60,491 nucleotides of DNA from Candidatus Delongbacteria bacterium (GTDB taxonomy: Bacteria; UBA4055), in the NCBI GenBank assembly GCA_003252515.1, contig QKDR01000029.1, forward strand, positions 1 through 60,491. The letters run 5' to 3'. The first letter of the stretch is position 1. The number at the start of each line of letters is the position of its first letter. The notes beneath the pieces were generated by a model. The model was given only the letters and a program-made list of their open reading frames with translations, made no database searches and was not told where the DNA came from. Positions 28,724 to 53,045 of the stretch are shown here, one piece after another. The translations under genes were made by a program, and so were the position numbers.

Positions 28724-28727
28724 AACA

Positions 28728-35289: not shown

Positions 35290-35298
35290 ATATTTTCG

Positions 35299-36408: not shown

Positions 36409-36960
36409 TCATCCGCCGTCGCTTGTTTCTTCTTCGACGACGTCGGGAAGGCTCGGATCAAGCCACTTGGCATATCCGCCTTTAAGGCTCATTACATTTC
36501 TGTAGCCCATTTTCATAAGAGTCTGGGCTGCCAGAGCAGATCTGCCTCCTGATTTACAGTAAACAACTATTTCCTCATCTGTTCCCGGCATTTCGACGAA
36601 CAGATCATTGTCCCAGTACTTTTTGTTCCCGATATTGAACTCAATCATACCTCTTGGAATGTTTACCGTAAACGCATCAGGGTAAGGATACTCTCCGCTT
36701 TCCTCATCTTCCTGATTGATGAACCCTTCTTCGTATTCGGAAGGTTCCCTTACATCGATTACGACTCTTACTTCTTTGTTGTCCAGTTTCGATTTAAAAT
36801 CATCGTAACTGATCTCCGTGATATCTTTCTTCGCTTCACTTACCATTGCTTTGGAATTATCGAAAATCCCGTTCTCGCTGAAACCCTTTCCGCATGATAC
36901 GAGCAGAAGAAGGACAACTGTCAGAGCTGAAAGATATAATATCCGTCTGTTCATCATCAT
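36409..36960 (-). CDS. single-domain rhodanese lipoprotein
   Basis: Lipobox LLLVSCGKG. Canonical active-site loop VVYCKSGGRSALAA. Confidence 0.8.
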   Translation of the reverse strand: MMMNRRILYLSALTVVLLLLVSCGKGFSENGIFDNSKAMVSEAKKDITEISYDDFKSKLDNKEVRVVIDVREPSEYEEGFINQEDEESGEYPYPDAFTVNIPRGMIEFNIGNKKYWDNDLFVEMPGTDEEIVVYCKSGGRSALAAQTLMKMGYRNVMSLKGGYAKWLDPSLPDVVEEETSDGG

Positions 36961-36966
36961 CTCCTT

Positions 36967-38181
36967 TTAAAATGCGGAAAATTTTCCGGTTTTTTCATTC
37001 CATTTTACAAATATGTACGCAAAAAGCAAAAGCACAAGGATCAGTATTACCGATCCGGTATAACCAAGATAATCCGGCAGGAATACTTTTGTCGCTTCGG
37101 GCAGAAAACTGTCGAAGAAAGGCACAACGAAGTTCCTGGCGATCGGAGCAAATACAACGAATCCGAGTGCGGACAGCCATAGTTTAACATGTCCTTCTCC
37201 GGCTCTCCATAATGTTCCGACAGCACAGCCGCCGGCTATCGTCATACCCAGACCAAAGATGAACCCTCCGATCAGAGCTTTCGCCCAGAAGCTCGCGTAT
37301 ACTGCTTTCATTTCTATAGCCCTTACTGAAGTCTCCGCGGCGTTCCCGACACCAAAATACTTGAGAACGGTATAGCCGGTCAGGATCACAAGTATACTGA
37401 TAATGACCGCAACAGGAGCGGTCGCTTCGCCCGTCATGAACGGCTCGCGGAAAGCTCTAACAATACAGAATCTGGATCTCTGAAGAATGAGTCCGAGAAG
37501 CAGTCCGATTATAATATGCCATCCGAGCACCTTCATTCCCGAAGAACCTTCATAGTTATAGTTTCCGGCGACATAAAGAACCGCGATTATCACAAGCCAG
37601 GCCAGCCATTTCTGCCAAGCTCCGTGTTTGCTGTTGCCCGCCAGAAAAGTGTATGATTTTCCCGTGCTCATAAAAGGAAGGACTTCCATTTCCCAGATTA
37701 TATACTTTAAGGCAATATAAGTACCGATCAGAAACCCTAATGCCAGAAACAGAGCTCCGCCAGACAGAGCAGGCAAAGCCGAGAAGAAACCGCCTGTAGT
37801 ACATCCTACTCCGACCATAGATCCTACAGCCATCAATGCGCCTCCGAGAAAACCTTTGAAAAGTTCACCCTTTGGAGCGATCTTGATCCCGAACTCACCC
37901 GAGAATAGAGATGCCGTCATTGATCCTACCACCACCATAATGTTCAAAATGGCGACAGTATGCATGCTTACAGGTGTCGATGTGCTCATACTTTCCCATC
38001 CGAAAGCTCCGAGGAAGTTCTGCCCGATGTTCAGATAGCCTCCACTTGCCCCCCAGGGATACTTCACAACGAACAGAAGGATGTTCAGAACAGCCAGAAG
38101 TACACCTCCGACCCACATCGGCCAGGATTTTGCGAACAGGCTGTCGTATAGTTCCCTGAGCGTTCCGCCTTTTTTAAACAC
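36967..38181 (-). CDS. YeeE/YedE-family sulfur-compound (thiosulfate-type) transporter
   Basis: 404-aa polytopic protein. It has the three Cys-containing half-helix motifs typical of YeeE: GVGCTTGGFF, SRFCIVRAF and AGGCAVGTLW. A TusA-like gene lies immediately downstream. Confidence 0.8.
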   Translation of the reverse strand: MFKKGGTLRELYDSLFAKSWPMWVGGVLLAVLNILLFVVKYPWGASGGYLNIGQNFLGAFGWESMSTSTPVSMHTVAILNIMVVVGSMTASLFSGEFGIKIAPKGELFKGFLGGALMAVGSMVGVGCTTGGFFSALPALSGGALFLALGFLIGTYIALKYIIWEMEVLPFMSTGKSYTFLAGNSKHGAWQKWLAWLVIIAVLYVAGNYNYEGSSGMKVLGWHIIIGLLLGLILQRSRFCIVRAFREPFMTGEATAPVAVIISILVILTGYTVLKYFGVGNAAETSVRAIEMKAVYASFWAKALIGGFIFGLGMTIAGGCAVGTLWRAGEGHVKLWLSALGFVVFAPIARNFVVPFFDSFLPEATKVFLPDYLGYTGSVILILVLLLFAYIFVKWNEKTGKFSAF

Positions 38182-38192
38182 AGCTTTCTCCC

Positions 38193-38420
38193 TTATTTTT
38201 TCTTGATGTAGAACTTATTCTCGCCCTCACCTTCCTCTATGCTGAGAAATTCGTTCCCGGTTTTATTACACCATGCCGGTACGTCAGCTTTTGATCCCGG
38301 ATCCGTACCTATCAGTTCAAGCACCTGTCCGGGCTGAAGGTCCTTCATCGCCTTAGCAAGCTTGATTATAGGCATAGGGCATGATAATCCCCTGCAGTCC
38401 AATGTTTGATCAGCGTTCAT
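38193..38420 (-). CDS. tusA: TusA-family sulfur carrier protein
   Basis: 75 aa. LDCRGLSCPMPIIKLAK is the CPxP motif. Confidence 0.85.
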   Translation of the reverse strand: MNADQTLDCRGLSCPMPIIKLAKAMKDLQPGQVLELIGTDPGSKADVPAWCNKTGNEFLSIEEGEGENKFYIKKK

Positions 38421-38423
38421 TTT

Positions 38424-38918
38424 TCACTCCTCTTTTTTATTGTTATTAGCCCATTTCCCGTCAAGAATATTTGAAAGAACATCTTTTATTTCTTTCTCTT
38501 CTTTAGAATCAGGATGCAGTTTGTCGTTAATGATCCTGCATCTCAGGCTCTGTAGTTGTTTATCAAGCTCTTTTGCTTTAACATATCTTTCTCTTTCAAC
38601 GAAACCTTCTTTCACAGCCATCTCTCTAAGAATATCCAGCACATCGGAAAATTTCACACCCTGAGGGCAGAGAGCGTAACAGGTATAGCATCTGGAACAC
38701 ATCCAGAGAATATCCGATGATAGAACTTCCTTTTTCATTCCCAGGATACACATTCTGATTATTCTTCTGGGATCGTACTCGTCGTGAACTTCCGCCACCG
38801 GACATGCCGCAGTGCATGTTCCGCATGTGAAACACCTCTGTATGTGCTCCGCTCCGGGATGTGAGGCTATCTCGTTCTTGAAGTTCGCATCCATTTCGCT
38901 TAAGACTATCTTGTTCAT
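38424..38918 (-). CDS. HdrC-like 2x[4Fe-4S] ferredoxin subunit
   Basis: CFTCGTCTAACP and CSRCYTCYALCP motifs with HdrC-like spacing. 164 aa. Confidence 0.65.
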   Translation of the reverse strand: MNKIVLSEMDANFKNEIASHPGAEHIQRCFTCGTCTAACPVAEVHDEYDPRRIIRMCILGMKKEVLSSDILWMCSRCYTCYALCPQGVKFSDVLDILREMAVKEGFVERERYVKAKELDKQLQSLRCRIINDKLHPDSKEEKEIKDVLSNILDGKWANNNKKEE

Positions 38919-38933
38919 CAGAATTCTCCTTTA

Positions 38934-39764
38934 CTAAAAAGCTTCGGGTATATTTTTAAGTTCTTCGAATGAAAATACCGGTCCGTCGATACAGACATAC
39001 TTCGAGCCTATACCGCATCTTCCGCATTTCCCTATTCCGCATTTCATCCTTCTTTCGAGCGAAGTGTATATTTTATCGTCCGCGAATCCGAGTTCCTTAA
39101 GAACGGGCAGCGTGAATTTTATCATGATCGGAGGACCGCAGACAACAGCCCACGAATTCGGATCGGGAGCCACTTCTTTTGTGATGGTCGGAACGAATCC
39201 GCAATGCTTAGTCCATCCTTCTACCGATTTGTCAATGGTCAGGTGCAGAAAAAGGTCATCTCTCTTATCCCATTCCTTAAGCTCGTCCTTGTAAATGAGC
39301 AGATCGGGGTTCCTTGCTCCATAGATCACTGTGATCATACCATAATCCGACCTGTGTTCGAGCATATAAACAAGCATCGATCTCAGGGTCGTGAAAGCAA
39401 AACCTCCGCCGATTATCACTACATCCGCGCCTTTGAATTTCTCGACCGGATACCAGTTCCCGAGAGGACCCCTGATACCTACGATATCTCCCGGCTGAAG
39501 ATAATGGATCTCCTTTGTTACGGATCCGGTCCTGTTGACCGTGAATTTAAGAATGTCTTTTTCTGTAGGAGAAGAAGCTATTCCGAATGGGGATTCTCCC
39601 TTTCCGAGCATCGAGAACTCGCAGAACTGACCCGGCATGTAACTGAATTCGTCCCTGTCTTTCTCGTTCACAAAAGAGAGGTCAAATGTTTTAAGGGTTT
39701 TGTCCGGATTCTCGGCAAGGATTTTCTCGACCTTCATCTGTATAGGTAAGTAACCGTTACACAT
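38934..39764 (-). CDS. FAD/NAD(P)-binding oxidoreductase subunit with C-terminal [2Fe-2S] (FlxA / AsrB / sulfhydrogenase-gamma-like)
   Basis: FNR-like fold motifs (MPGQFCEF, RTGSVT, VVIIGGGFAFT) and the C-terminal motif CGIGKCGRCGIGSKYVCIDGPV. The start is uncertain (39764 or 39737). Confidence 0.7.
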   Translation of the reverse strand: MCNGYLPIQMKVEKILAENPDKTLKTFDLSFVNEKDRDEFSYMPGQFCEFSMLGKGESPFGIASSPTEKDILKFTVNRTGSVTKEIHYLQPGDIVGIRGPLGNWYPVEKFKGADVVIIGGGFAFTTLRSMLVYMLEHRSDYGMITVIYGARNPDLLIYKDELKEWDKRDDLFLHLTIDKSVEGWTKHCGFVPTITKEVAPDPNSWAVVCGPPIMIKFTLPVLKELGFADDKIYTSLERRMKCGIGKCGRCGIGSKYVCIDGPVFSFEELKNIPEAF

Positions 39765-40812
39765 CGGCTTGGACCTTTTCTTTAATTTTATGATCTAAAA
39801 TACCTTTTATAACTTCTCTGATATCGAAATTTACGGGACAAACCACGATGCACCTGCCGCAGCCCGTACAAAGATGGCTTCCGTAATTCTCCATAAAATA
39901 ATTGAATTTATGCATCACTCTCTGTTTCACACGCTGAGTCGAATTTCCGCGTGGATTATGACCTGAAGCCTCCATAGTGAAGATCGGGAACATGCATGAA
40001 TCCCACAGCCTGACCCTTTTTCCCCTGCCGTTCTTACCTTCGTCAGATACGTCGAAGCAGTGACACGTCGGACATATAAAAGCACAGGCGCCGCAGTTGA
40101 CGCATTTAGCGGCCAGTTTCTGCCACACAGGTTCGTTCCAGACTGTTGAAAGCTTTTCGAACAGGTTTGATATGTCGGTTGGTTTGGACATCATTTCTTC
40201 AGCTTTCTTTTTGGCTGTTTCGGCAAGTTCTTCGTCCTTCTTCTCCGCTTCAATCGTTACCGACAGTTTTTCAAGTAATGCTTTACCTTTTTCAGAGACA
40301 CCTTTCAGGATCAGATCCCCGTCAGTCTCAACGACGAACACGTCCGAACCGGTCTCGTCAAAAGGACCGCCGCCGAACCAGTTGCAGAAACAGGTTGACA
40401 GTGGTGCAGTGCATGCGAAGTTGAAGATAACGGAGGTGTCGTACTTTTTCTTCCAGTACGGGTCTTTGTACATATCCTTGTCCGGAGCCTGATGTGCGTT
40501 ACCGAACACCTTATCCAGCATTCTGATGCTCTTCGTGTCGCAGTTCCTCACACCCCAGAGCAGATAAGGTTTCTCTTCGTTATCCGAAATCCGGACCCCG
40601 TTAGTGTCATACTCGAAAAGTACTTCCGATTGGGGAAAGAAAACGTCTTTAGGAGATCTTTCGGATTTTACGGTGCCGGTAGAAATTTCCGCCGGATCGG
40701 TGATCTTTTTAAATTTAGATCTGGACCCGTCTTTTACCGGAGCGAAAACGAGATAATCCTTTAAAAATTCTCCGATCAGTCCGTTTATTTTGTCTTTTTT
40801 TACTTTCAGCAT
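39757..40812 (-). CDS. Fe-S subunit (AsrA / sulfhydrogenase-beta / FlxB-like), 2x[4Fe-4S]
   Basis: CVNCGACAFICPTCHCFDV and CTGCGRCIVVCPVNFDI. I prefer the start at 40812 (MLKVKKDK), just after the upstream stop. The ORF track extends to 40851. Confidence 0.65.
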   Translation of the reverse strand: MLKVKKDKINGLIGEFLKDYLVFAPVKDGSRSKFKKITDPAEISTGTVKSERSPKDVFFPQSEVLFEYDTNGVRISDNEEKPYLLWGVRNCDTKSIRMLDKVFGNAHQAPDKDMYKDPYWKKKYDTSVIFNFACTAPLSTCFCNWFGGGPFDETGSDVFVVETDGDLILKGVSEKGKALLEKLSVTIEAEKKDEELAETAKKKAEEMMSKPTDISNLFEKLSTVWNEPVWQKLAAKCVNCGACAFICPTCHCFDVSDEGKNGRGKRVRLWDSCMFPIFTMEASGHNPRGNSTQRVKQRVMHKFNYFMENYGSHLCTGCGRCIVVCPVNFDIREVIKGILDHKIKEKVQADV

Positions 40813-40814
40813 TT

Positions 40815-41780
40815 TCAACTCATTATAAAATCTTGTTTTTCGTGCTCGCAAAAGGTCGCCATTGCAGGTTTCTCATTAATGTCGAGACCTGCAGTATATC
40901 CGAACCTTTCCCTGATCTCCTTCTCGACCTTCTTGTTCATGATCCTCAGGTCGATCTCCACTGGACAGGCAGTAACGCAGGACCCGCAGTCGACGCACCT
41001 CCCGGCTATATGTATATTTCTTATAAGGTGGAAAATTATCGAATCTGTCGTTTCAGGGGTCTTTCCTATCCACTGCGGATTGTTCTGATCCACAAAACAT
41101 TCGTTGCAGTAGCATGACGGGCAAACGTTCCTGCATGCGTAGCAGCGGATGCATTTTGAATATTCCTCAGTAATATATTCCCATCTTTCTTCGGCTGTTT
41201 TCTTTTCGAACTCGTTGACGCTGGAGAATTCTTCCGGTACGTCAACTTCTTTTCTCGGTTCGCCGATGAAAACGTCGTATTCCCTCGCGTCGGGATATCT
41301 GCAGTAGATACAGGAATCTGAAAGGACTTCTTTTTCCGGTACGGATTTCTCGAGATCCCTGCCTTTTATCGTAACTATATTTCCGGAGCTTTTCACGGAA
41401 AATATCTCTTTTCCTTCCGCTGCAGCCCTCAGCTTCTTTTTCTCATACATCCCTTCGCAGTGTACGCCGATTATAAATACGTTTTCTCTCTTGACCTGAT
41501 TCTCAACAGCATAAAGAACGACCGATCTGGCATCACAGCCCTTAACGATCACTCCGACCTTCGCATGATCCTTAGAAAGTTTCCTCTTGTCTTTCGTCAG
41601 ATATGAAGTAAGATTGTTCCTGCATGTATGGTCGAATATCAGTTCCCCGACATCTTCGGGATATTCCATGAACAGAGGCGTGGCGATACCGGGAAGAGTG
41701 CCTTTTTTCCAGCCGATCACGATATCCGCCTTCTTCTCTTCAAGTATCTTCTTAACCGTATCCTTAAGTTCCTGCAGCAT
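40815..41780 (-). CDS. Fe-S protein, member of a local three-member paralog family (FlxC/FrhB-like?)
   Basis: CIRCYACRNVCPSCYCNECF...IFHLIRNIHIAGRCVDCGSCVTACPVEIDL. N-terminal GCDARS motif. Its ATG shares one base with the mvhD stop (TAATG). Confidence 0.6.
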   Translation of the reverse strand: MLQELKDTVKKILEEKKADIVIGWKKGTLPGIATPLFMEYPEDVGELIFDHTCRNNLTSYLTKDKRKLSKDHAKVGVIVKGCDARSVVLYAVENQVKRENVFIIGVHCEGMYEKKKLRAAAEGKEIFSVKSSGNIVTIKGRDLEKSVPEKEVLSDSCIYCRYPDAREYDVFIGEPRKEVDVPEEFSSVNEFEKKTAEERWEYITEEYSKCIRCYACRNVCPSCYCNECFVDQNNPQWIGKTPETTDSIIFHLIRNIHIAGRCVDCGSCVTACPVEIDLRIMNKKVEKEIRERFGYTAGLDINEKPAMATFCEHEKQDFIMS

Positions 41781-42202
41781 TATTTAACTCCTTTTACAAG
41801 TCTTTTGGCCGGTCCGATCTTTTTTATATCTTCCGATATTTTTGCTATAATATTGGCGAATCTTTCGCCTTCTCCTGCGGAAATCCACGAGAACTGAACT
41901 CTCTCCGGTTCAACTCCGACATACTCTAAGAGAGGCTTGATCGCCGCGAATTTTCTTCTTGCTATGAAATTACCTGACAGGTAATGGCAGTCGCCCGGAT
42001 GTCAGCCGGATACGAAAAGCCCATCATAACCGCTCTGAAGCGTCTTTACTATAAAAAGCGGATCGACCCTTCCGGAACATGGTATTCGCACAACTCTTAC
42101 GTTCGGAGGGTACTGCATCCTGGATACACCTGCCAAGTCAGCTCCGGCATAAGAGCACCAGTTGCACAGTAAAGCCAGTATTTTCGGTTCCCAGTTACTC
42201 AT
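41780..42202 (-). CDS. mvhD: MvhD (methyl-viologen-reducing hydrogenase delta / FlxD-like) selenoprotein; UGA at 42004..42002 read as Sec
   Basis: The track ORF 42002..42202 ends ...LFVSG at a TGA. The same frame continues U-HPGDCHYLSGNF...SWISAGEGERF for 73 sense codons to TAA 41782..41780. The TGA sits at the Cys of the conserved G-C-H-x-G-D-C-H-Y motif. Confidence 0.85.
41969..41985 (-). promoter_or_regulatory. SECIS-like hairpin downstream of UGA (mvhD copy 1)
   Basis: In the mRNA: AUUACC-UGUCA-GGUAAU, starting 17 nt after the UGA. Confidence 0.5.
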
Positions 42203-42222
42203 TGAAACTCCGTGTTATCAGT

Positions 42223-45200
42223 TTACTCGTTCATTACATTAATTATATCAAGCGATTCGAATGCGCTGAACATCTGCTCGTTCGTGAATCCTCTCAGATC
42301 CAGCGCACCGCACCTGCATGATGCCACACATGCCCCGCAGCCCTTGCATAGAGCGTCGTTCACTTTTGCGACTTCTTTCTCCTTATTGATCTCGATCGCG
42401 TTGTACGCGCATATCTGTTCGCAGTAACCGCAGGCCGTACAACGGCTTTCGTTCACCTCGCAGATGGTTCCTTCCGCGAGAACGGCTTTTTTGTTCAAAA
42501 ACGTCATCGCCCTGCTCGCCGCCGCTTTGGCCTGAGTGATACTTTCGCTACAATCTTTCGGGCCGTGCGCCAGACCTGCAAGAAAAACGCCGTCCGTCGC
42601 GAAATCCACCGGTCTGAGTTTTGCGTGGGCTTCGAGGAACATACCGTCAGTGTTTAGCGATACTTTAAGCATCTTGGCCAGATCCAAATTCTCTTTCTTG
42701 GCATCAACGGCGGTCGAGAGAACAAGAAGGTCGGCTTTTATTTCAATGTTCCTGTTCACGATCGGGTCGAAGACCGTGACGTTGACCTGAGTATCCGGAT
42801 CCATATCGTTGACAAGAGCCACTTCCGGTTTGTTGTCCGGCGTGTAGTGAACGAACATCGCTCCCTTGCCTCTCAGTTCGGAATAATATTTTTCCCTGAA
42901 ACCGTACGTTCTCACATCCCTGTACACGATGTAGATGTTCGCGTTCGGAAGCATCTTCTTGAGCACACCGGCGTTCTTGACGGCTTTCGTACAGCAAATT
43001 CTGCTGCAGTACATTTTCCCTTCCTCTCTCGATCCTACGCACTGTATCATAACCACGTTCTGAGGTTTTCTACCGCCGGGGAATTTCTTATCCTTCATCA
43101 TCCTTTCAAGCTCGACCTGCGAAATGATCCTTGATGATTCCCCGTAAAGGTATTCTTTCGACTCATGCTCGTCAGCTCCGGTCGCGATGATCACTGCTCC
43201 GTGCTCAACTATAACAGGCTGATCGCTACCTTTTTTCAGAAGTGTGGACTTGAAATTACCGACGTAACCGTCGATCTTTTGTATTTCAGTGCTCATATGA
43301 ATATGAATAAGCCTGTTTTTCCTGAGTTTATCTATTGTATCAGCAAGAAGTTCCTGCGGGTCGTCCTCGAAATTGAAGAAAATATTCCTGAGATTTCCTC
43401 CGAGCTCGTTCTCTTTTTCCACCAGATAGACTTCGTGTCCCGCTTCGGCCAGCGAGATCGCTGCGGTCATTCCGGCAAGTCCTCCGCCGATGACCATTGC
43501 TCTCGGATCGATAGGTATAGGCAGCCTTTTCAAAGGTTTCAGCTCTCTTGCTTTCGCGATACCCATACTTATAAGATCTTTAGATTTAGCTGTAGCGAGT
43601 TCCGGTTCGTTCATATGCGCCCAGGAGCACTGGTCTCTGATGTTGGCCATTTCGAACAGATACGGATTAAGCCCGGCTTCTGAAATTGTTTCCCTGAACA
43701 GAGGTTCGTGAGTTCTGGGAGTACACGCTGCTACGACGATCCTGTTGAGATTATGTTCTTTTATCTTTTCCTTTATTGTGTTCATACAGTCCTGAGAACA
43801 TGCGTATATCAGGTTCCCCGAAAATTCTACGTTAGGCTGAGTTCCGGCATGTTCGGCGACCGCTTTCACATCCACGACCCCGGCGATATTTATACCGCAG
43901 TGGCATACGAAAGCGCCTATCCTGGGTCTGTCTCCGGAAACGTCCATTTCAGGCACAGCTCCTTTTTTGTCTGTCAGGTCCTGACGCTCAAGCCTCAAGA
44001 ACTTGAGAGTTTCGGCTACAGCGCCTGAAGAAGTTGTAACCGACTCGGGGATGTCTTTAGGAGCATTCATAGCTCCGCAGACGTAAATACCTTCACTGGT
44101 AGTGTTCAGAGGAGTATTAGCGTCCGATCTGCAAAACCCGAATTCGTTCAGGTTGAAGTTCAGTTTTTCAGCGAGTTCGGTTATGTTGTTCCTGGGCTGA
44201 AGTCCGATCGAAAGCACGACCATATCGAATTTCTTGTACTGTATTTCTCCGTTCTCGAACACGTATTTCAGAATCAGGTTGCCCTCGTCGTCCTGGGAAA
44301 TGTCCGAAACTTTGGATTTTATGTATTCGACACCATATTTGCTTTTTGATTTTTCATAATATTTATCGAAATCCTTACCGAACGCTCTTATATCCATATA
44401 GAATATCGACGGCTGAAGGTCTTTTATGTGCTCTTTTGCAATAATAGCTTCTTTGATGGCGAACATGCAGCATGCTGAGGAACAGTAATTATGATTTATA
44501 TTCTCGTCCCTGGACCCGACGCACTGAATGAAAGCGAGACTCTTCGGTTCCTTGTGGTCTCCCGGACGTATGACATGACCTCCAAGCGGACCGGAAGCAG
44601 ACAGCATCCTTTCGAACTCAAGTGAAGTGACCACGTTCGGATATCTCTTATATCCGAAATTGCCGAAATGGATCGGGTTGAACGTATCTATCCCGCTCGA
44701 CAGTATTACAGCTCCGACATTAATTTCGTACTGTTTGTCTTTATCATCAAAATCTATCGCGCCTGCCGGACAAACCTTTTCGCATATCCTGCAAACGCCC
44801 TTGTTAAGATAAAGACAGCTTCTTCTGTCGATAGTATATTCTGAAGGGATACTTTGAAGGAAATATCTTGATATCGCTCCTCTTTTCCTGAGCTTCATGT
44901 CGAACTCGTCGTCAATCTTGACCGGACATTTTTCTTCGCAGAGACCGCATGATACGCATTTTTCCTGATTGACATACTTGGCTTTTTCAGTAATTACAGC
45001 CTTGAAATTGCCGGGAACACCGCTTACGGAATCTACGATCGAAGTCGTGTATATTTTTATATTGGGATGTCTGACGCTCTCGCTCATTTTCGGCGCGAGG
45101 ATACACATTGAGCAGTCATTGGTCGGGAAAGTTTTGTCCAGCTGGGGCATTCTTCCACCAATCGAAGGTGATTCTTCGACCAGATGTACCTTAATGCCCA

Positions 45201-45279
45201 TTTCAGCAAGGTCAAGCGCCGCCTGTATGCCGGCTATCCCCGCTCCTACTACCATTACCGATCTGCTTTTCAAACTCAT
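42223..45279 (-). CDS. hdrA: double HdrA (two HdrA-type flavin modules fused, 1018 aa)
   Basis: Module 1: VVGAGIAGIQAALDLA...DKTFPTNDCSMCI and NYCSSACCMFAIKEA. Module 2 starts at RIGAFVCHCGINIAGV, with IGGGLAGM, MYCSRICCTKAVKNA and two C-terminal CxxCxxCxxxC motifs. Confidence 0.85.
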   Translation of the reverse strand: MSLKSRSVMVVGAGIAGIQAALDLAEMGIKVHLVEESPSIGGRMPQLDKTFPTNDCSMCILAPKMSESVRHPNIKIYTTSIVDSVSGVPGNFKAVITEKAKYVNQEKCVSCGLCEEKCPVKIDDEFDMKLRKRGAISRYFLQSIPSEYTIDRRSCLYLNKGVCRICEKVCPAGAIDFDDKDKQYEINVGAVILSSGIDTFNPIHFGNFGYKRYPNVVTSLEFERMLSASGPLGGHVIRPGDHKEPKSLAFIQCVGSRDENINHNYCSSACCMFAIKEAIIAKEHIKDLQPSIFYMDIRAFGKDFDKYYEKSKSKYGVEYIKSKVSDISQDDEGNLILKYVFENGEIQYKKFDMVVLSIGLQPRNNITELAEKLNFNLNEFGFCRSDANTPLNTTSEGIYVCGAMNAPKDIPESVTTSSGAVAETLKFLRLERQDLTDKKGAVPEMDVSGDRPRIGAFVCHCGINIAGVVDVKAVAEHAGTQPNVEFSGNLIYACSQDCMNTIKEKIKEHNLNRIVVAACTPRTHEPLFRETISEAGLNPYLFEMANIRDQCSWAHMNEPELATAKSKDLISMGIAKARELKPLKRLPIPIDPRAMVIGGGLAGMTAAISLAEAGHEVYLVEKENELGGNLRNIFFNFEDDPQELLADTIDKLRKNRLIHIHMSTEIQKIDGYVGNFKSTLLKKGSDQPVIVEHGAVIIATGADEHESKEYLYGESSRIISQVELERMMKDKKFPGGRKPQNVVMIQCVGSREEGKMYCSRICCTKAVKNAGVLKKMLPNANIYIVYRDVRTYGFREKYYSELRGKGAMFVHYTPDNKPEVALVNDMDPDTQVNVTVFDPIVNRNIEIKADLLVLSTAVDAKKENLDLAKMLKVSLNTDGMFLEAHAKLRPVDFATDGVFLAGLAHGPKDCSESITQAKAAASRAMTFLNKKAVLAEGTICEVNESRCTACGYCEQICAYNAIEINKEKEVAKVNDALCKGCGACVASCRCGALDLRGFTNEQMFSAFESLDIINVMNE

Positions 45280-45300
45280 AATACAGTCCCCGCCGTCTGT

Positions 45301-45741
45301 CTAAATAAATATATTGTGTTTACTTTCATTCTCACCTTTTTCCAGGATATCTTTTGTGAACTCGTTGCCGACCTGAGCGAATTTCTGCCCTTCCGAAGCC
45401 GAGATCCATGACAACCTGAACCTTTCTTCGTCAAGTCCGAGACCTCCGAACAGGGCTTTTAGAATTTTGATCCTTCTTCTTGTATAGAAATTACCGACCT
45501 GGTAATGGCAGTCGCCGGGGTGTCATCCGCCCACAAGTATGCCGTCAGCCCCTCTCAGGTACGATTTGATAAGGAATACAGGATCGATCCTGCTGGAGCA
45601 CATTACCTTTATCGGCAGAATAGATGTCGGATAGGACATCCTGTTGATACCCGCCAGATCCGCTCCGGTATATGAACACCACTTGCATAAAAAACTTACG
45701 ATCTTTGGTGATTCAGCGCTTTTCATATCTTTATTTTCCAT
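45301..45741 (-). CDS. mvhD: MvhD-like selenoprotein; UGA at 45525..45523 read as Sec
   Basis: The track ORF 45523..45741 ends ...ILVGG at a TGA. The frame continues [13 protein letters not shown]...[11 protein letters not shown] for 73 codons to TAG 45303..45301. Confidence 0.85.
45490..45506 (-). promoter_or_regulatory. SECIS-like hairpin downstream of UGA (mvhD copy 2)
   Basis: In the mRNA: AUUACC-AGGUC-GGUAAU, starting 17 nt after the UGA. The loop contains GGUC. Confidence 0.55.
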
Positions 45742-45762
45742 GTTTTAAGCTCTCAACTTATC

Positions 45763-46854
45763 TTATTCACCGAGTTCAGGGAATTCCTGCTCTTTATATA
45801 TCATCACCGGTATCTTTTCTTCTACATTTCTACCCGGTACGAAACTGAATTCAGAGGCCACAATCTCACCGGCTCTGTTGAAGACCGTTCCTACAGGTAT
45901 CGAAGCGGGACATACATCTGAGCATTGTCCGCAGCCGACGCACGAAAAAGCCATATGGGACATTCTGCCGATGTGAAAGAATATCGTATCGGGCGGAAGC
46001 CTTACCGCGCCTTTCTGTTCAGCCTCTTTTTCGATTATCGTCCTGTTGTAGTCAAAATTCGCGGAAGAAAAATCGCATTGAGTACAATAACAAATGGGAC
46101 ATACAGAATTACAGCCTCTGCAGCCGATACATCTTCCGAATATCTCCACGAGCCCTTCAAGCCCTTTATCGCTTTTATCTACTGCCGCGTACTGCCGATG
46201 CTTTACTTCCTTTCTTTCAGAAACGATCCCTGACAGTACTGACGGATCGAATTTCCCGTTCTTAAGTTCTATTCCCGATCCTTCAATTATCTTTTTCGTT
46301 CTCTCGTTCCAGACATATATCTCGGTCGTTCCGCATTCCGATCCCAGAAAACTCACAAGAACATCCGCGTTCTCAGGATAAAAATGTTCGCATCTGAGAC
46401 AGTTGTCTCTTAAACCATCCGTATTTTTACATTCCGAAACTGAAGCGTAATATTTTTTTAACTCTTCGTCGGACATACCACCGGCAAGTTTCTGCATAGG
46501 GTAAACCCCTCCGCAAGTATAGCTGGCTGTTATAAAATTATCGATATCGCCCTGAACTCTCTTTACAAGTTCAATGAAGGCTCTTAATTCACAAGGTCTG
46601 ATTATAGCCAGAACAGGCTTATCCATCTTTGTGAATTTGGACAGTATCTTGCCCGCGTTCTGAGGCATTGCGGGATAGAAGGGTACGATATATTTCAGAA
46701 GTTCTGGATCCGTTATCAGTCCGTAATCGGCATTTGACGCGCCTCCGAATTTCTTTAAAGAGAACACTCCGCCGATCTTTCCGTTCTCGAGCAGATATGA
46801 AGCAAGTTCTCTTACTGCAGTATCACGGTCCTTGTTTATCACCGCTTTAAGCAT
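45763..46854 (-). CDS. Fe-S protein, local paralog family (FrhB/FlxC-like?)
   Basis: RPCELRAF motif. CIGCRGCNSVCPICYCTQCDF...IFFHIGRMSHMAFSCVGCGQCSDVCPASIPV. Confidence 0.6.
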   Translation of the reverse strand: MLKAVINKDRDTAVRELASYLLENGKIGGVFSLKKFGGASNADYGLITDPELLKYIVPFYPAMPQNAGKILSKFTKMDKPVLAIIRPCELRAFIELVKRVQGDIDNFITASYTCGGVYPMQKLAGGMSDEELKKYYASVSECKNTDGLRDNCLRCEHFYPENADVLVSFLGSECGTTEIYVWNERTKKIIEGSGIELKNGKFDPSVLSGIVSERKEVKHRQYAAVDKSDKGLEGLVEIFGRCIGCRGCNSVCPICYCTQCDFSSANFDYNRTIIEKEAEQKGAVRLPPDTIFFHIGRMSHMAFSCVGCGQCSDVCPASIPVGTVFNRAGEIVASEFSFVPGRNVEEKIPVMIYKEQEFPELGE

Positions 46855-48010
46855 CTAATCCCTCCTGTCTGTCAACACTCTTCACCAGCTCTCCCAGCTG
46901 TCCCAGCTGTCCGAGCTCTTCCTCTTTATAATCTCTCATCGGCAGCGGATCTCCTGTGCTGTTACCTGCTCTGTAATCGAAAGCCTCCTGGGTCTGTGAT
47001 GCCATATAACTGAAAACCGAGGCTACAGGAATATCTACCGGGCAGGCGTCAGAGCACAGTCCGCACGATACGCACGACAGGCTCATATGCGTCATCCTGC
47101 CTATATGGAACATCAGCTTATCTTCCGGGAAAGACAGCGCGCCTTTCTTTGACGCTCTCAGCAGTTTATAATCTGAATTCTGCTCATTTACCGAAGAGTC
47201 AAAAAAGCACTGCCTGCAGTAGCAGATCGGACACACGCTTCCGCAGTTATGACAGCCTATGCATTTCTCAAATACCTTATTAAGGTTCTGCATTCCGTCG
47301 ACCGAGGCTGCGGTTTCCGTGAATACTTTTGTTCTTTTTTCTTTCCTTACTGACAAGGCGGCGCTGAAAGAGTCTTCAGCGGGTTTCATATCTTCTTCTG
47401 CCTTCAGACCGCAGTCAGTGATAAATGAATTCCCTTTCTCGGTAACAGGCACAAGGTACAGATCGCTGTCTGTTTCTGAAATATGCATGTCGGATGAAGT
47501 TCTGCCGAATTCAGTACAGGTACCACAAATGCTCTTCATTATATCCGAATTATATTCCCCGCTCATGAAAGCCGAGTTAAAATCACTGCCTTTACCTTCG
47601 GGATCTTTGATGAAATCCTGCATCGGGACCGCTCCGGGGCAATCGTATGTTATCAGAAAAAGGTCTTCGGAATGAACCTGATTAAGTTTAATAAGTTCGG
47701 TCAACGCTCTTATCTCGCAGGGTCTCACAAGCACGCATGTCCTGTACTTTCCGTTCCCTTTTCTTGTCAGTCTTTTAACTGCATTGGCAGCGTTAACCGG
47801 CATTATCGGAGTGATAATGTCGGACATCTCCAGTACCTTCCTGTCCCTGATCAGCATCCAGGCGTATGAATCACCGGAAGGTACTTTTACGGGAAGAAAG
47901 GCCGCATCCGCAATTCCCGAATCCAGAGCTTTAACCAGAAAGTCCTTTATCACTTCTCTGTAATTTTGTTTAGAACCCAGTTTGACTCCCTTCGGAGTGA
48001 TTATATCCAT
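46847..48010 (-). CDS. Fe-S protein, local paralog family (FrhB/FlxC-like?)
   Basis: RPCEIRAL motif. CIGCHNCGSVCPICYCRQCFF...LMFHIGRMTHMSLSCVSCGLCSDACPVDIPV. 8-nt overlap with the downstream paralog. Confidence 0.6.
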   Translation of the reverse strand: MDIITPKGVKLGSKQNYREVIKDFLVKALDSGIADAAFLPVKVPSGDSYAWMLIRDRKVLEMSDIITPIMPVNAANAVKRLTRKGNGKYRTCVLVRPCEIRALTELIKLNQVHSEDLFLITYDCPGAVPMQDFIKDPEGKGSDFNSAFMSGEYNSDIMKSICGTCTEFGRTSSDMHISETDSDLYLVPVTEKGNSFITDCGLKAEEDMKPAEDSFSAALSVRKEKRTKVFTETAASVDGMQNLNKVFEKCIGCHNCGSVCPICYCRQCFFDSSVNEQNSDYKLLRASKKGALSFPEDKLMFHIGRMTHMSLSCVSCGLCSDACPVDIPVASVFSYMASQTQEAFDYRAGNSTGDPLPMRDYKEEELGQLGQLGELVKSVDRQEGLDA

Positions 48011-48020
48011 ATAAATCCCT

Positions 48021-49706
48021 CTACCTTACAGCTTCTTTAATTTCCTGGAACAGCTGCGGGTTGGTGAAATGCCTTGATCTTATTGAACCTGAAGGACAGC
48101 TTCCCACGCAGTTACCGCATCCTCTGCAAACGGCACCGTTGACTACCGAGACCGCTTTCGCATCATCAAAATAAATAGCACCGTATTTACATACTTTGAG
48201 ACATGTCTGACATCCGGTACAGTACGCTTCCAGAACTTCAGACACCTTAACTTCAGGAACGATCTTCTGACCGGGAATAAGCTGGGTAGATATCTTTGCG
48301 ACAGCCGCTTTCGCCTGTATTATGGAATCTGCGACATTAGCCGGACCGTGAGCGGCACCGACGGCAAAGATACCGTCGTTGGATGAAGATATCGGATTTA
48401 TCTTAAGATGAGCTTCTTTTATGAATCCGTATTCGTCAAGATCGATATTGAGAAGTTGAGCAAGTTCTTTAGTTCCCATGGCCGGTATGACCGACTTGGC
48501 GTAAATTATCATATCGTGCTCATCTGTTCCCTCTGTACCATAAGGATCGGCGTATTTTACCGTCTCGCCTTTAAGATTGAGACCGCTGATATATTTGAAT
48601 TCAATACCTTCCTCTCTGACATCCTTATAGAATGACTGACTGTCTTTTGTAGGAAGGCACAGATCTCTGATGTAATGGACGACAGGAACATCGGGATACA
48701 TGGCTCTTATATATGATGATATCTTTATCAGATAATTGCAGCAGATCTTTGAACAGTAGCCGGATAACTCTCTTCCGACACAGTGTATAATTCCCACTGA
48801 AGTTGGTGTCTTGCCGTTTTTCTTCAGCACTTTCTTCTGCTGAGCCATAAGAGCTTCTATCTCGAGTCCGCAATGTACATCGTGTTCGTCTGAAAATTCC
48901 ATGTATGCTGATTCTCCGGCATGAAGCAGTTCGTATCCCGTCGCGACTATAACGGCTCCTGCCATGAATTCCGTAGTATCGTTGTTAACAAGATTTCTTA
49001 TAACAATTTCATAATTACCCTGAAAACCTATAATACTTTCAAGCTTTGTACTTGTAAACACTTTTATATTCGGGTTCTTTTTGAGTTTTGCGAGCTTCTG
49101 ACTTATCATGTTCAGGTTCGATCCCTGCTCGGTCAGCAGGCCGTGAAGCCTGGTAGTCTTACCTCCCAGTTCCGGGGCTCTTTCGATAAGATAGACCGTC
49201 CTGTCCTTTGATGCAAGGTTCAGAGAAGCCTGAACACCGGCTATACCTGCTCCGATCACAAGCACATCGCAGTTAGAATCAAGCTGGTTCTCAAATAACT
49301 GTTCCTGATACAGAACTCTGTTCATACCGCCGTGAATATACTTGACGGCTTTATCCGTCGACTGTTCCTTGTCAGGTATTACCCATGCGCATTGCTCTCT
49401 GATATTCACCATCGTATAAAGATAAGGGTTCAGCTTTGTTTTCTTGCAGACCCCGATGAAAGTCGAATCGTGCTCTCTCGGTGAACAGGCGGCGCAGACC
49501 ATATGGGTAAGTTCGTTTGAATTTATCTCATCCTCAAGAAATTTCTTGCCTTCGTTCGAACAGAGAAGCTTATGTCGTCTTATAACAAGCTCTTTATCAC
49601 CGAAATCCTTCAGCCCGGCTATTTCCGCTGCTATCCTGTCCATATCCACTTTACTGGCTATGTTGGGACCGCACTCGCATAAGAATATTCCTATTTTATC
49701 ACCCAT
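48021..49706 (-). CDS. hdrA: HdrA, complete canonical-type module (561 aa; second half of a split double HdrA)
   Basis: KIGIFLCECGPNIASKVD N-domain, VIGAGIAGVQASLNLA, GYCSKICCNYLIKIS, and C-terminal CTGCQTCLKVC plus CRGCGNCVGSCP. Confidence 0.8.
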   Translation of the reverse strand: MGDKIGIFLCECGPNIASKVDMDRIAAEIAGLKDFGDKELVIRRHKLLCSNEGKKFLEDEINSNELTHMVCAACSPREHDSTFIGVCKKTKLNPYLYTMVNIREQCAWVIPDKEQSTDKAVKYIHGGMNRVLYQEQLFENQLDSNCDVLVIGAGIAGVQASLNLASKDRTVYLIERAPELGGKTTRLHGLLTEQGSNLNMISQKLAKLKKNPNIKVFTSTKLESIIGFQGNYEIVIRNLVNNDTTEFMAGAVIVATGYELLHAGESAYMEFSDEHDVHCGLEIEALMAQQKKVLKKNGKTPTSVGIIHCVGRELSGYCSKICCNYLIKISSYIRAMYPDVPVVHYIRDLCLPTKDSQSFYKDVREEGIEFKYISGLNLKGETVKYADPYGTEGTDEHDMIIYAKSVIPAMGTKELAQLLNIDLDEYGFIKEAHLKINPISSSNDGIFAVGAAHGPANVADSIIQAKAAVAKISTQLIPGQKIVPEVKVSEVLEAYCTGCQTCLKVCKYGAIYFDDAKAVSVVNGAVCRGCGNCVGSCPSGSIRSRHFTNPQLFQEIKEAVR

Positions 49707-49717
49707 AAACTACCTTA

Positions 49718-51007
49718 TTATTCATTTATTACAGCAAGAATACCCGCCACAGCAGCTTCAGCCTGCAGGATCGAACTCTGAACATCTTTAGGTCCTTCAA
49801 CGCAGCCTGCCACAAAAATACCGGCTCTCGAAGTTTCCACAGATCCTATCTCATACGGCTCTACACTTATAAACCCGTATTTATCTCTATCGATCTTGAG
49901 TATTTCAGTAAGGTCGACAATATTCTTCGGAGGTACAAGAGAATTTGCGAGTATTACCATATCCGTTGAGATCTGCTCAACTTTTCCTTTGTATAAATAT
50001 TTCACATTCAGTTTATCTCCTGCTTCTTCAATATTAATACTGTTCATATCTGCCTGGAAAATAAACTCGGAATCATGAGATTTAACGCTATCATAAAATT
50101 TCTGATAGTTTTTATCAGTTAAACAAATATCGGAATACAGATTGAATATTCTAACGTTTTCCAGTTTGTGTTTTATGAAATGCGCGTGTTTTGAAGAAGA
50201 CATACAGCATACTGTTGAACAGTATCCTGACTCTTCTCTTCCGACACAGTGAATGATAGCTACGGACTCAGGTTTCTTCCCGTTTCGCAGGATTAATTCA
50301 CCCTGAGTAGGTCCGTTAGAAGCGAAAAGCCTTTCGAATTCAAGCGAAGTATATACTCCATCCAGTTTGCTGTATCCCAGTCTGTCAATTTCTGCAGCAT
50401 CGTAAATATCATATCCGGTCGCTACGATAATTCCCGACACACTGAATTCCAGTACCTGATCTGTATCTTTAAGATCAATCGCCGCGAACATGCACGACTC
50501 AACGCATTTCGTACATTCCTCCGTGCCGTTCAGATTCAGGCATTTTTCCCTGTCGATAACCGGTACGTTCGGTAAAGACCCCGAACACGGGACGTAAATA
50601 GCTTTCTTGTCTGCCAGATTCTCTTCCCATTCGTTTTTCAGAACTACAGGACAAACCTCATAACACATTCCGCAACCAAGACAAAGCTCCAGGCTTACAT
50701 ACCTTGCTTTTTTCCTGACCGAGACCTTGAAATCACCTCTGTTTCCTGACACTTTTTCGATCGAGCTGTAAGTTAACACCTGAATGTCTTTATTCTGAAG
50801 TATAGACTGCTGGATCGGTGCTACAAGACAGGTTGAGCAGTCAAGATTCGGAAAAGTCTCCTCGTTCTTGATCGTCTTGCCGCCTATTATCGGGAGTTTT
50901 TCTACAAGGATAACCTTTTTCCCGGCTTTCGAAAGCATAAGTGCGGCTTCCATTCCCGCTACACCGGACCCGATTATCATAACATTTTCATTAGCGCTCA
51001 TCATCAC
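49718..51007 (-). CDS. hdrA: HdrA-like flavin module without N-domain (429 aa; first half of a split double HdrA)
   Basis: IIGSGVAGMEAALMLS...EETFPNLDCSTCL, CLGCGMCYEVCP and GYCSTVCCMSSSKHA. GTG/ATG start at 51007/51004. Confidence 0.8.
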   Translation of the reverse strand: MMMSANENVMIIGSGVAGMEAALMLSKAGKKVILVEKLPIIGGKTIKNEETFPNLDCSTCLVAPIQQSILQNKDIQVLTYSSIEKVSGNRGDFKVSVRKKARYVSLELCLGCGMCYEVCPVVLKNEWEENLADKKAIYVPCSGSLPNVPVIDREKCLNLNGTEECTKCVESCMFAAIDLKDTDQVLEFSVSGIIVATGYDIYDAAEIDRLGYSKLDGVYTSLEFERLFASNGPTQGELILRNGKKPESVAIIHCVGREESGYCSTVCCMSSSKHAHFIKHKLENVRIFNLYSDICLTDKNYQKFYDSVKSHDSEFIFQADMNSINIEEAGDKLNVKYLYKGKVEQISTDMVILANSLVPPKNIVDLTEILKIDRDKYGFISVEPYEIGSVETSRAGIFVAGCVEGPKDVQSSILQAEAAVAGILAVINE

Positions 51008-51014
51008 ATTCCAG

Positions 51015-51437
51015 TTATAAATTGATGTCTTTTGTAACAGGATTAGGACCTAGCTTAGCGATCTTCTTCGTGAACTCATTCACGACCTGTTCGTATTTAT
51101 TGCCTTCCGAAGCTGATATCCACGTAAGCTGGATCCTTTCGGGATCAATATTCAAGGTTTGGAATACCTTTTTAAGGAGAGCGTACCTTCTTCTTGTGTA
51201 GTAATTACCGACCTGGTAATGGCAGTCGCCCGGATGTCAGCCGGCGATCAGAACGCCATCCGCTCCGTTGAAGAAAGTAGTAAGTAATAGATTATGGTCC
51301 ACCCTGCTGGAACACATCACCCTGACGGCGTTGAATCCGGGTGGCAGATTTTTTTTAGCGGCTCCCGCCATATCCGCTGCGGCATATGTACACCAGTTGC
51401 ATAGGAAGCCGACTATTTTCGGATTGAACTCTTCCAT
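51015..51437 (-). CDS. mvhD: MvhD-like selenoprotein; UGA at 51239..51237 read as Sec
   Basis: The track ORF 51237..51437 ends ...VLIAG at a TGA. The frame continues [13 protein letters not shown]...TWISASEGNKY for 73 codons to TAA 51017..51015. Confidence 0.85.
51204..51220 (-). promoter_or_regulatory. SECIS-like hairpin downstream of UGA (mvhD copy 3)
   Basis: In the mRNA: AUUACC-AGGUC-GGUAAU, starting 17 nt after the UGA. Identical to copy 2. Confidence 0.55.
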
Positions 51438-51469
51438 TTAACACTCTGTCAAAAATTACATTAATTTAT

Positions 51470-51499
51470 TAAAAAAGCGCCCGTCTGCTGACGGACGCC
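51470..51499 (-). terminator. rho-independent terminator after the dsrE-like/tusA pair
   Basis: GCGTCCGTC-agca-GACGGGCGC hairpin (one mismatch), followed on the minus strand by TTTTTT. Confidence 0.7.
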
Positions 51500-51512
51500 T
51501 AACGAGAATCGT

Positions 51513-51737
51513 TTATAGCTGGATCTGAGCGTTGTGGACTCCGGAACCGTCGTCCATGCAGAACATCAGGGTTTTTCCGGTTCTGTCGCACCACGCTTTT
51601 ATATCAGTAGGAAATGAAGGGCAGTCGGCTTTTATCTCAAGAATGTCGCCGGGCTGAAGAGTAGGTATTACAGCTACCACTTTTAGTATTGGTTGCGGAC
51701 ATTTCAGTCCTAAGCAGTCTAATTCTTTTGTAGCCAT
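51513..51737 (-). CDS. tusA: TusA-family sulfur carrier protein (copy 2)
   Basis: LDCLGLKCPQPILKVV is the CPxP motif. 74 aa. Confidence 0.85.
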   Translation of the reverse strand: MATKELDCLGLKCPQPILKVVAVIPTLQPGDILEIKADCPSFPTDIKAWCDRTGKTLMFCMDDGSGVHNAQIQL

Positions 51738-51765
51738 TTTGTTCTCCTTTAATTTTTTTAATTTC

Positions 51766-52131
51766 CTAGAATGAAAATGTAAGGTTCGAACCCTGCGCTT
51801 CAGCTACAAAAGTGGTAGCTCCGACAACTTCGCATCCTTCTATCAGATCTTCCTCGTGAAGTCCGTGGACACCAAATCCGAGCTCGCAGATCAGAATTCT
51901 TCCGCCCAAAGCCTTGAATCCTTCCATCATCTCCACAAGATTCGGAAGATTTTTGCTCATTCCTTCTTCATTGAGTTTCTCTATCATCCCTTTTTTCAGC
52001 GCCGGAAGCGCGCTCGGAAGTATAAAGAGTATCACTTCATCCCCGCTTGCAAGAGCTGATACGGAGATAGTTACTGCAGGATAAATGTTCTTTACTTCCG
52101 ATCCGTTAAGAGTGATTGCCAGTTTGCCCAT
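51766..52131 (-). CDS. DsrE/DsrF-like family protein
   Basis: 121 aa. Small alpha/beta protein with ...ILFILPSA... and GGRILICELG (conserved Cys context). Adjacent to tusA. Confidence 0.6.
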   Translation of the reverse strand: MGKLAITLNGSEVKNIYPAVTISVSALASGDEVILFILPSALPALKKGMIEKLNEEGMSKNLPNLVEMMEGFKALGGRILICELGFGVHGLHEEDLIEGCEVVGATTFVAEAQGSNLTFSF

Positions 52132-52163
52132 TTTTTCTCCCTGTGTAATTTTTCACATTTTTA

Positions 52164-52192
52164 AATTTATTTCACATATTGCCGTTTGTCAA
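52164..52192 (-). promoter_or_regulatory. sigma70-type promoter of the dsrE-like/tusA operon
   Basis: On the minus strand: TTGACA (52192..52187), 17-nt spacer, TAAATT (52169..52164). The -10 is bracketed by TGTGAAA repeats. Confidence 0.5.
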
Positions 52193-52258
52193 GAACTTTT
52201 TATCTAATTATTTGCATATCTATATATCCGAATAGTGCGATATTCATGATTAAAAAAA

Positions 52259-52643: not shown

Positions 52644-52868
52644 TTATAGCTGAATCTGGGCGGTATGCACCCCTGAACCGTCGTCCATACAGAACATCAG
52701 TGTCTTTCCTGTTCTGTCGCACCACGCTTTTATATCGGTTGGAAAAGAAGGACAATCGGCTTTTACTTCCAGAACGTCTCCGGCGGGTATGGTCGGGATC
52801 TTAGCTACCACTTTTAAAATAGGCTGCGGGCATTTCAATCCTAAACAATCTAATTCGTGAGTTGCCAT
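52644..52868 (-). CDS. tusA: TusA-family sulfur carrier protein (copy 3, close paralog of 51513..51737)
   Basis: MATHELDCLGLKCPQPILKVVAKIP... It differs from copy 2 at only about 9 of 74 residues. Confidence 0.85.
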   Translation of the reverse strand: MATHELDCLGLKCPQPILKVVAKIPTIPAGDVLEVKADCPSFPTDIKAWCDRTGKTLMFCMDDGSGVHTAQIQL

Positions 52869-52912
52869 TTTTTATCTCCTTACTGGTTTAATCGTTGTTT
52901 CTTCCGCTATAC

Positions 52913-52941
52913 ATTATATCCATTATTTAAACCGATTGCCA
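52913..52941 (-). promoter_or_regulatory. sigma70-type promoter of tusA copy 3
   Basis: On the minus strand: TGGCAA (52941..52936), 17-nt spacer, TATAAT (52918..52913). Confidence 0.45.
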
Positions 52942-53045
52942 TATTTTTTTTACATTTTTTACAATTTTATAAGTTCCGTTTTTATATTGCATTGAAGTCA
53001 TTATTTTTGTATTGTTATTCTTTAATATTGGATAAGGAGGGCAAA

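Follow-up and report, generated by a model that had tools for sequence, protein, structure and literature searches.

Does the UGA codon that interrupts the mvhD copy 2 gene on a contig of Candidatus Delongbacteria bacterium (GenBank QKDR01000029.1) terminate translation, or is it decoded as selenocysteine (Sec)? The window, by which we mean the whole analyzed stretch of 60,491 bases, carries three mvhD genes with such a codon, and copy 2 is treated here in detail. We consider it very likely that copy 2 is functional and encodes a Sec-containing MvhD/FlpD-type [2Fe-2S] electron-transfer protein. Judged from the comparison with homologous sequences, the UGA at 45525..45523 almost certainly encodes Sec. 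The features of the gene are the following.

45741..45301, minus strand: mvhD copy 2, full recoded coding sequence with 72 codons, UGA (Sec73), 73 further codons and TAG
45525..45523, minus strand: in-frame UGA of copy 2, Sec candidate in the motif G-[C/U]-H-P-G-D-C-H-Y, where archaeal MvhD has Cys67
45506..45490, minus strand: hairpin AUUACC-AGGUC-GGUAAU of 17 nucleotides (nt), candidate Sec insertion sequence (SECIS), stem of 6 bp and loop of 5 nt, formed by the codons for His-Tyr-Gln-Val-Gly-Asn

Read on the minus strand, the frame opens with ATG 45741, and its first part ends with ...ADGILVGG at TGA 45525..45523. After the TGA it stays open for exactly 73 codons up to ...NIFI, followed by TAG 45303..45301. 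A spacer of 16 nt separates the UGA from the first base of the hairpin stem, which starts at the 17th nt past the UGA. The first-pass annotation of this DNA had described both the 73-codon extension behind the TGA and a SECIS-like hairpin at this position and distance, and the sequence bore out both placements.

Copy 2 is a member of the PF02662 family of Pfam (FlpD/MvhD, methyl-viologen-reducing hydrogenase delta subunit). Using a profile search with Cys replacing the TGA, a score of 155.5 bits was obtained (cut-off 22.3, E = 8e-46) over profile positions 1-120 of 123, with the UGA spanned by the alignment. All three mvhD products of the window, treated in the same way, matched the complete profile with E = 8e-46 to 1e-52 (positions 1-120 or 1-123 of 123). 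The Cys pattern CxxC ... C ... [C/U]HxGDCHY was found complete in copy 2, with C19, C22, C48, U73 and C78 in invariant columns. Since homologues of 141 amino acids (aa), aligned end to end, begin where copy 2 has Met6, the true start is probably ATG 45726, which gives a product of 141 aa instead of 146 aa.

What stands in other proteins at the position of the UGA? A homologue search covering 5.8 billion proteins yielded thousands of full-length relatives of 141-143 aa, of which the 120 best were inspected. The TGA column was Cys in 120/120 of these best full-length homologues, in the context [G/A/T]-G-C-HPGDCHY. Residues 11-133 of copy 2 furthermore aligned with residues 5-127 of PDB 5ODC chain D, the MvhD of an MvhADG-HdrABC complex (E = 8e-43). 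The junction of that protein reads GGCHLGDCHY, again with Cys at the UGA position. A TGA facing an invariant Cys is, at the level of such alignments, the classic Sec/Cys signature.

The same codon recurs within the window and far beyond it. The two paralogs are:

42202..41780, minus strand: mvhD copy 1, TGA at 42004..42002, hairpin AUUACC-UGUCA-GGUAAU at 41985..41969
51437..51015, minus strand: mvhD copy 3, TGA at 51239..51237, hairpin AUUACC-AGGUC-GGUAAU at 51220..51204

Both show the junction G-TGA-HPGDCHY and the 73-codon extension of copy 2, with which they share 46-53% amino-acid identity. Nucleotide identity among the paralogs is approximately 74% overall and near-perfect, even at synonymous positions, in the stretch of about 50 nt that follows the TGA. 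The initial description of three paralogs interrupted at one codon with intact downstream frames was therefore confirmed for copies 1, 2 and 3. Scanning metagenome contigs with the exact pattern GGN-TGA-CAY-CCN-GGN-GAY-TGY-CAY-TAY, at least 120 loci with the same TGA were found, and HPGDCHY directly after the TGA was 100% conserved among the loci listed. With the exception of L100, whose upstream frame is broken, all listed loci encode mvhD sequence in open frames before and after the TGA, as far as the contigs reach. A second scan, of genome contigs and with the protein-alignment pattern GCHPGDCH, yielded almost only Cys forms, which served as control set, and one deltaproteobacterial TGA locus (L064, Desulfobacteraceae), where the TGA was directly seen at the same column. 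An independent Logan assembly carries the same genes, called there as FlpD fragments of 72 aa and 66 aa. The N-terminal fragment belongs to a 90% identity cluster with seven members; as all of them are fragments of 65-78 aa, the close relatives share the TGA.

Is the protein beyond the UGA maintained? Purifying selection on the post-UGA segment equals that on the pre-UGA segment. Compared with orthologues, nonsynonymous divergence (dN) was 0.09-0.24 before and 0.10-0.29 after the TGA, while synonymous sites were saturated in both segments. For most pairs the Nei-Gojobori method gave a saturated synonymous divergence (dS, value -1), which leaves dN/dS undefined, and dN together with the codon-position pattern was used instead. 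Differences per position of the codon amounted to about 0.2, 0.1 and 0.6 in both segments, i.e., position 3 far exceeded position 1, which exceeded position 2. The earlier proposal that selection on the post-UGA region would speak for its translation, and neutral evolution against it, was decided by these values: purifying selection was observed and neutral evolution was not found. The accompanying argument against pseudogenisation was likewise upheld by intact frames, low dN and a TGA shared by the paralogs and at least 120 metagenome loci.

The RNA behind the UGA was analyzed with 119 unique sequences, metagenomic ones and those of the window. The hairpin is under selection as an RNA element, is linked to the TGA and is not a by-product of the protein sequence. 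Third codon positions varied freely at the His, Pro, Gly, Asp and Cys codons +1 to +5 (entropy 0.74-1.82 bits), while synonymous choice was frozen at codons +6 to +11 only. Leu+8 was CTG in 67/67 (0 bits) and Glu+9 was GAA in 60/63 (0.28 bits); Gly+10 used GGT or GGC alone, while other Gly and Leu codons of the same sequences kept 1.5-2.0 bits. The choices fall into two mutually exclusive codon solutions:

Class A: codons CAT TAC C.. ... GGT AAT, hairpin AUUACC/GGUAAU with the loop N-G-N-N-N, 83 sequences including all three copies of the window
Class B: codons CAC TAT ..T AGT GGC, hairpin GCCACU(A)/(U)AGUGGC in the other register, about 28 sequences

The Ser codon follows this division, with AGT in class B and TCN in class A. 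Among the loci listed, a perfect 6-bp hairpin in either register was present in 111/117 TGA genes versus 2/84 Cys genes (Fisher p = 3e-46), the 84 Cys control genes coming from the genome scan and largely from other phyla than the Sec set. Because of this phylogenetic difference, the stronger control is the comparison, within the same sequences, of codons +1 to +5 with codons +6 to +11, which is independent of relatedness. RNAalifold, applied to 22 class A sequences, returned the hairpin as the sole consensus structure.

The bacterial SECIS (bSECIS) model asks for a loop of 3-9 nt, an upper stem of 4-16 bp, a UGA-to-loop distance of 16-37 nt and a minimum free energy (MFE) of -7.5 kcal/mol or lower, with a G as first or second base of the loop and mostly a G or U after it (PMC13188914). 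The geometry of copy 2 lies within this model: a stem of 6 bp, a loop of 5 nt (AGGUC) whose second and third bases are G, and a distance of 22 nt between the UGA and the loop. This geometry and the linkage of the hairpin to the TGA support the SECIS-like nature proposed by the first-pass annotation. The GGUC apical loop named there was present in copies 2 and 3 (AGGUC) and absent from copy 1 (UGUCA); the rule across the family is N-G-N-N-N, and most members have UGGAA. Among the metagenome Sec-mvhD loci L081-L200, another fold or a variant SECIS may be used.

We are aware of several points, besides the composition of the Cys control set, which weigh against decoding of the UGA as Sec by means of this hairpin. 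By itself, the hairpin reaches only -4.1 kcal/mol and stays above the bSECIS threshold of -7.5 kcal/mol; the MFE of the 60 nt after the UGA, hairpin included, is -10.2 kcal/mol in copy 2. Folding z-scores of these 60 nt against shuffled sequences were -0.23, -0.06 and +0.21 for the three copies and no better than chance. As stability alone does not exceed chance, the significance of the hairpin rests on the comparative data. In the 22 class A sequences analyzed with RNAalifold, neither a conserved lower helix nor compensatory changes were found, and the stem pairs were invariant. Invariant pairs give no covariation within a class, and the evidence for the hairpin therefore consists of the freezing of synonymous sites and the switch between classes. 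An Rfam scan of the window at gathering thresholds gave no match, i.e., no curated SECIS family applies. Genes selA, selB, selD and tRNA-Sec were not found in the 60,491-base contig, for which part of the open reading frames (ORFs) was scanned. Finally, the assignment of Sec to copy 2 is built on sequence comparison.

How do other explanations of the UGA compare? It might be read through without Sec, with a near-cognate or suppressor tRNA inserting Cys, Trp or Gly and the hairpin serving as a generic stimulator of read-through or pausing. A window in which no Sec machinery was seen and a short, weak hairpin are compatible with this, and the inserted residue cannot be identified from sequence alone. 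Nevertheless, we consider such read-through improbable: the UGA replaces a redox or metal-binding Cys as in the classic Sec/Cys pair, PF02662 is an experimentally verified selenoprotein family (PMC13188914), loop and spacing of the hairpin agree with the bSECIS model for SelB-dependent decoding, and the locus holds a YedE/FdhT-like and other selenium-associated families together with further TGA-at-Cys genes. Even less probable is a UGA acting as a true stop, in which case the 72-aa N-terminal fragment alone would be made and the downstream frame would be an untranslated remnant or encode a separate peptide. Public gene callers do annotate FlpD fragments of 65-78 aa for the gene and its 90% cluster. 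The complete conservation of HPGDCHY after the TGA and the purifying selection on the next 73 codons contradict a stop; moreover, these 73 codons are free of Met, with no other in-frame start before or within the HPGDCHY motif. As the conserved Cys residues lie on both sides of the TGA, the fragment would be unable to hold the cluster.

A pseudogene, or a sequencing or assembly error in the Cys codon, is suggested by the fact that TGA is one base away from both TGC and TGT. We give this explanation hardly any credence, since the same TGA is present in three paralogs diverged to 46-53% amino-acid identity with copy 2, in the independent Logan assembly, in at least 120 metagenome loci and in the syntenic L173 operon. 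The frames are intact with low dN, and the TGA occurs together with a hairpin that the Cys genes are without. Just as scarcely credible is a reassignment of UGA to a sense codon across the whole genome, the situation in genetic codes 4 and 25. Such reassignment does exist in some uncultivated candidate phyla; against this, TGA terminates 13/42 long ORFs of the window, whose 17125 codons are without an internal TGA, and in-frame TGAs are confined to a few sites aligning with Cys.

Decoding of the UGA as Sec would then proceed as follows. With the ribosome at UGA 45525..45523, a SelB-type elongation factor carrying Sec-tRNA(Sec) would be held by the 17-nt hairpin at 45506..45490. Sec would be inserted in place of termination, and translation would run on for 73 codons. 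The hairpin is formed by the codons for the invariant peptide C-H-Y-x-x-G-N, through the fixed synonymous choices CAU UAC C.. ... GGU AAU. Selenium would thereby enter the copy 2 product with Sec73, which would take the place of the Cys in G-C-H-P-G-D-C-H-Y (archaeal MvhD Cys67). Of the five conserved Cys positions, four are expected to act as ligands of the [2Fe-2S] cluster and one is non-ligating; we therefore infer that position 67/73 is most probably a [2Fe-2S] ligand at the HdrA interface. In MvhD, His68 and Asp71 approach the ligand bound by Cys202 and Cys205 of HdrA (PMC13580544). Their equivalents in the alignment with copy 2 are the H and D of U-H-P-G-D. Sec73 would be located next to these residues, which face the HdrA Cys pair and flavin adenine dinucleotide (FAD), and it may serve as cluster ligand or as redox relay. 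Electrons would pass from the copy 2 protein to the adjacent HdrA-like flavoprotein.

The direct neighbours of copy 2 are the following:

42223..45279, minus strand: hdrA-like gene of 1018 aa that begins 21 nt past the end of copy 2, FAD and Fer4 domains by Pfam, presumably the redox partner of MvhD
45763..51007, minus strand: two hdrA-like genes of 429 aa and 561 aa and genes for two FrhB/FdhB-like Fe-S proteins, upstream genes of the cluster, flanked by copies 3 and 2

Every mvhD copy in the window adjoins an hdrA-like gene, and an HdrA homologue was found beside Sec-mvhD in 98/120 of the metagenome loci listed. The metagenome locus L173 keeps the order DsrE-TusA-mvhD(U)-hdrA-hdrA-frhB-frhB-mvhD(U) with 50-84% amino-acid identity. 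The surrounding minus-strand cluster at about 28700..52200 comprises four HdrA-like genes, one of them a GltD-HdrA fusion of 1485 aa, an HdrC-like gene and genes for FrhB-like Fe-S proteins. It also contains an AsrB/HydG-like subunit for FAD and nicotinamide adenine dinucleotide (FAD/NAD), two TusA-like genes, one DsrE-like gene, a YedE/FdhT-like transporter, three rhodaneses and a porin; thioredoxins and an OsmC gene are also located in the part related to sulfur or selenium trafficking. This gene content suggests electron transfer of the Hdr type coupled to the trafficking of sulfur or selenium.

Two genes of this cluster carry an in-frame TGA of their own:

35237..34149, minus strand: OprO/P-like porin with weak similarity to ExtI, TGA at 34466..34464 in the context GSYTTGGG-TGA-DG
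36960..36400, minus strand: rhodanese-domain protein, TGA at 36411..36409, with the end ...SDGG-TGA-GG-TAG

In the porin, 105 open codons follow the TGA up to a typical outer-membrane C-terminus (...LVQLQVKF), and the TGA column was Cys in 115/116 full-length homologues. TGA, frame and downstream hairpin are kept in three related contigs (L203, 3001..4095; L204; L205), i.e., the syntenic locus of one Candidatus Delongbacteria metagenome-assembled genome (GCA_013139625.1) and two metagenome contigs. The hairpin reads UGGUG-GUU-CACCA and has a G-first loop starting 19 nt after the UGA. From these similarities, the product is probably a porin with Sec; the 2026 selenoproteome review nowhere uses the word "porin". 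Relatives of the rhodanese (L203, 1209..1751; L204, 3..518) end with ...EGG-TGA-G-TAG. A hairpin with a GUU-containing loop follows the stop, AAGUG-AGUU-CACUU in the window and GGGUGA-GUU-UCACCC in the relatives, and the rhodanese and porin hairpins of the window have GUG(A)GUUCAC in common. The pattern suggests that the rhodanese has a GGUG(G) tail with a Sec near the C-terminus; in the relatives this Sec would be the penultimate residue. Both candidates look more novel than Sec-MvhD, and they independently suggest that the organism decodes Sec.

A more far-reaching proposal is that the three Sec-MvhD/HdrA modules are not hydrogenase accessories and feed electrons into a selenium-dependent relay for sulfur or selenium in a Delongbacteria-like organism, the mvhD SECIS being a minimal 17-nt element that evolved in two registers within the codons of one invariant peptide. 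The relay part was derived from the neighbours, namely the TusA-like and DsrE-like genes, the three rhodaneses (one ending with GGUGG), the YedE/FdhT-like transporter and the OprO/P-like porin with a UGA at an invariant pore-loop Cys. We offer the proposal tentatively and consider it rather unlikely at present.

Two further frames with a TGA were tried as Sec genes and rejected. The HdrC-like gene followed by an in-frame ORF of 76 codons (38196..38930) is not a case of read-through; the ORF is a separate TusA-like gene with its ATG just past the stop. This gene (38196..38423, minus strand, MNADQTLDCRGLSCPMP...) directly follows the TGA stop that ends the HdrC-like gene, and its frame is the same by chance. 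The TGA-split frame at 25522..25995 (minus strand) looks like a transposase remnant, in which the TGA is probably due to decay; it is located in an ORF-poor stretch at 25.4-26.7 kb. On the plus strand, an ORF of 456 aa without Pfam or NCBIfam match (52857..54227) overlaps two TGA-joined ORFs on the opposite strand (53259..54209, minus strand). Components of type IX secretion were observed at 1774..7211 and 23206..24162, comprising PorV/PorQ-family proteins and two large proteins with C-terminal sorting domains of the type IX secretion system. Such components indicate a member of the Fibrobacterota-Chlorobiota-Bacteroidota group or of related candidate phyla. The GC content of the window is 44%.

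What does the recoded gene add? As PF02662 is among the commonest prokaryotic selenoprotein families, the Sec-MvhD described here adds to an already known selenoprotein family abundant in bacteria, and the main result is expected for specialists. Its practical consequence concerns annotation. Public gene calls shorten all three mvhD genes to FlpD fragments of 66-72 aa, and once they are annotated correctly, three full-length electron-transfer subunits are regained for complexes of the Hdr type, which possibly are electron-bifurcating. The recoded genes furthermore mark an uncultivated lineage as selenium user. They provide a clean example of a minimal bacterial SECIS that is set by synonymous-codon choice within a metal-binding motif, with two exclusive solutions, and such data could improve the gene finders for selenoproteins.

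How does copy 2 compare with known systems? By 2006, 19 bacterial Sec members of FrhD/MvhD had been counted, with several copies in Syntrophobacter fumaroxidans (Zhang et al., 2006, PMC1794560). The genes of S. fumaroxidans and other Deltaproteobacteria resemble those of the window in the Pfam family, the UGA for a conserved Cys, the multiple copies and the clustering with hdrA. Hydrogenase-related selenoproteins are associated with sulfate reducers and methanogens (PMC13188914). The host of the window differs in being neither of these and carries type IX secretion genes of the Fibrobacterota-Chlorobiota-Bacteroidota kind; a second difference is that none of the hdrA genes in the window encodes Sec. 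VhuD of Methanococcus and Methanocaldococcus, an archaeal selenoprotein verified by experiment, belongs to the same family and has the same role, that of a [2Fe-2S] adaptor linking an electron-input module to HdrA. The published listing gives VhuD two Sec residues and a CxxU motif, and archaeal SECIS elements are located in the 3' untranslated region (PMC13188914), whereas copy 2 has one Sec in U-HPGDC, keeps both Cys residues of the N-terminal CxxC and has its candidate SECIS inside the coding sequence. Compared with MvhD of Methanothermococcus thermolithotrophicus (PDB 5ODC chain D) and M. marburgensis, the five conserved Cys positions and the equivalents of His68 and Asp71 are kept, with the difference that these proteins have Cys67 where copy 2 has the UGA. 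With respect to gene layout, Desulfovibrio possesses FlxABCD-HdrABC, in which FlxD is an MvhD-like subunit beside Fe-S and FAD/NAD-binding subunits and hdr genes. Copy 1 together with the genes at 38934..41780 presumably represents a similar arrangement.

The loop of copy 2 had been likened in the first-pass annotation to the SECIS of E. coli fdhF, which in strain K-12 was examined directly, with the UGA at codon 140 and downstream RNA folding with a GGUC apical loop. Both elements lie inside the ORF directly 3' of the UGA, share the loop letters (A)GGUC and have a His codon after the UGA. The likeness holds for these loop letters and fails for the spacing, the bulged U and the lower helix. 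In fdhF the GGUC occupies nt 22-25, in copy 2 nt 27-30, i.e., 5 nt farther from the UGA. The fdhF element is a long two-part helix with unpaired stem bases and -16 kcal/mol over 60 nt, whereas copy 2 has a perfect 6-bp stem of -4.1 kcal/mol with neither a bulge nor a conserved lower helix. By its predicted structure, the copy 2 hairpin is a SECIS of the general bacterial type and not of the fdhF type.

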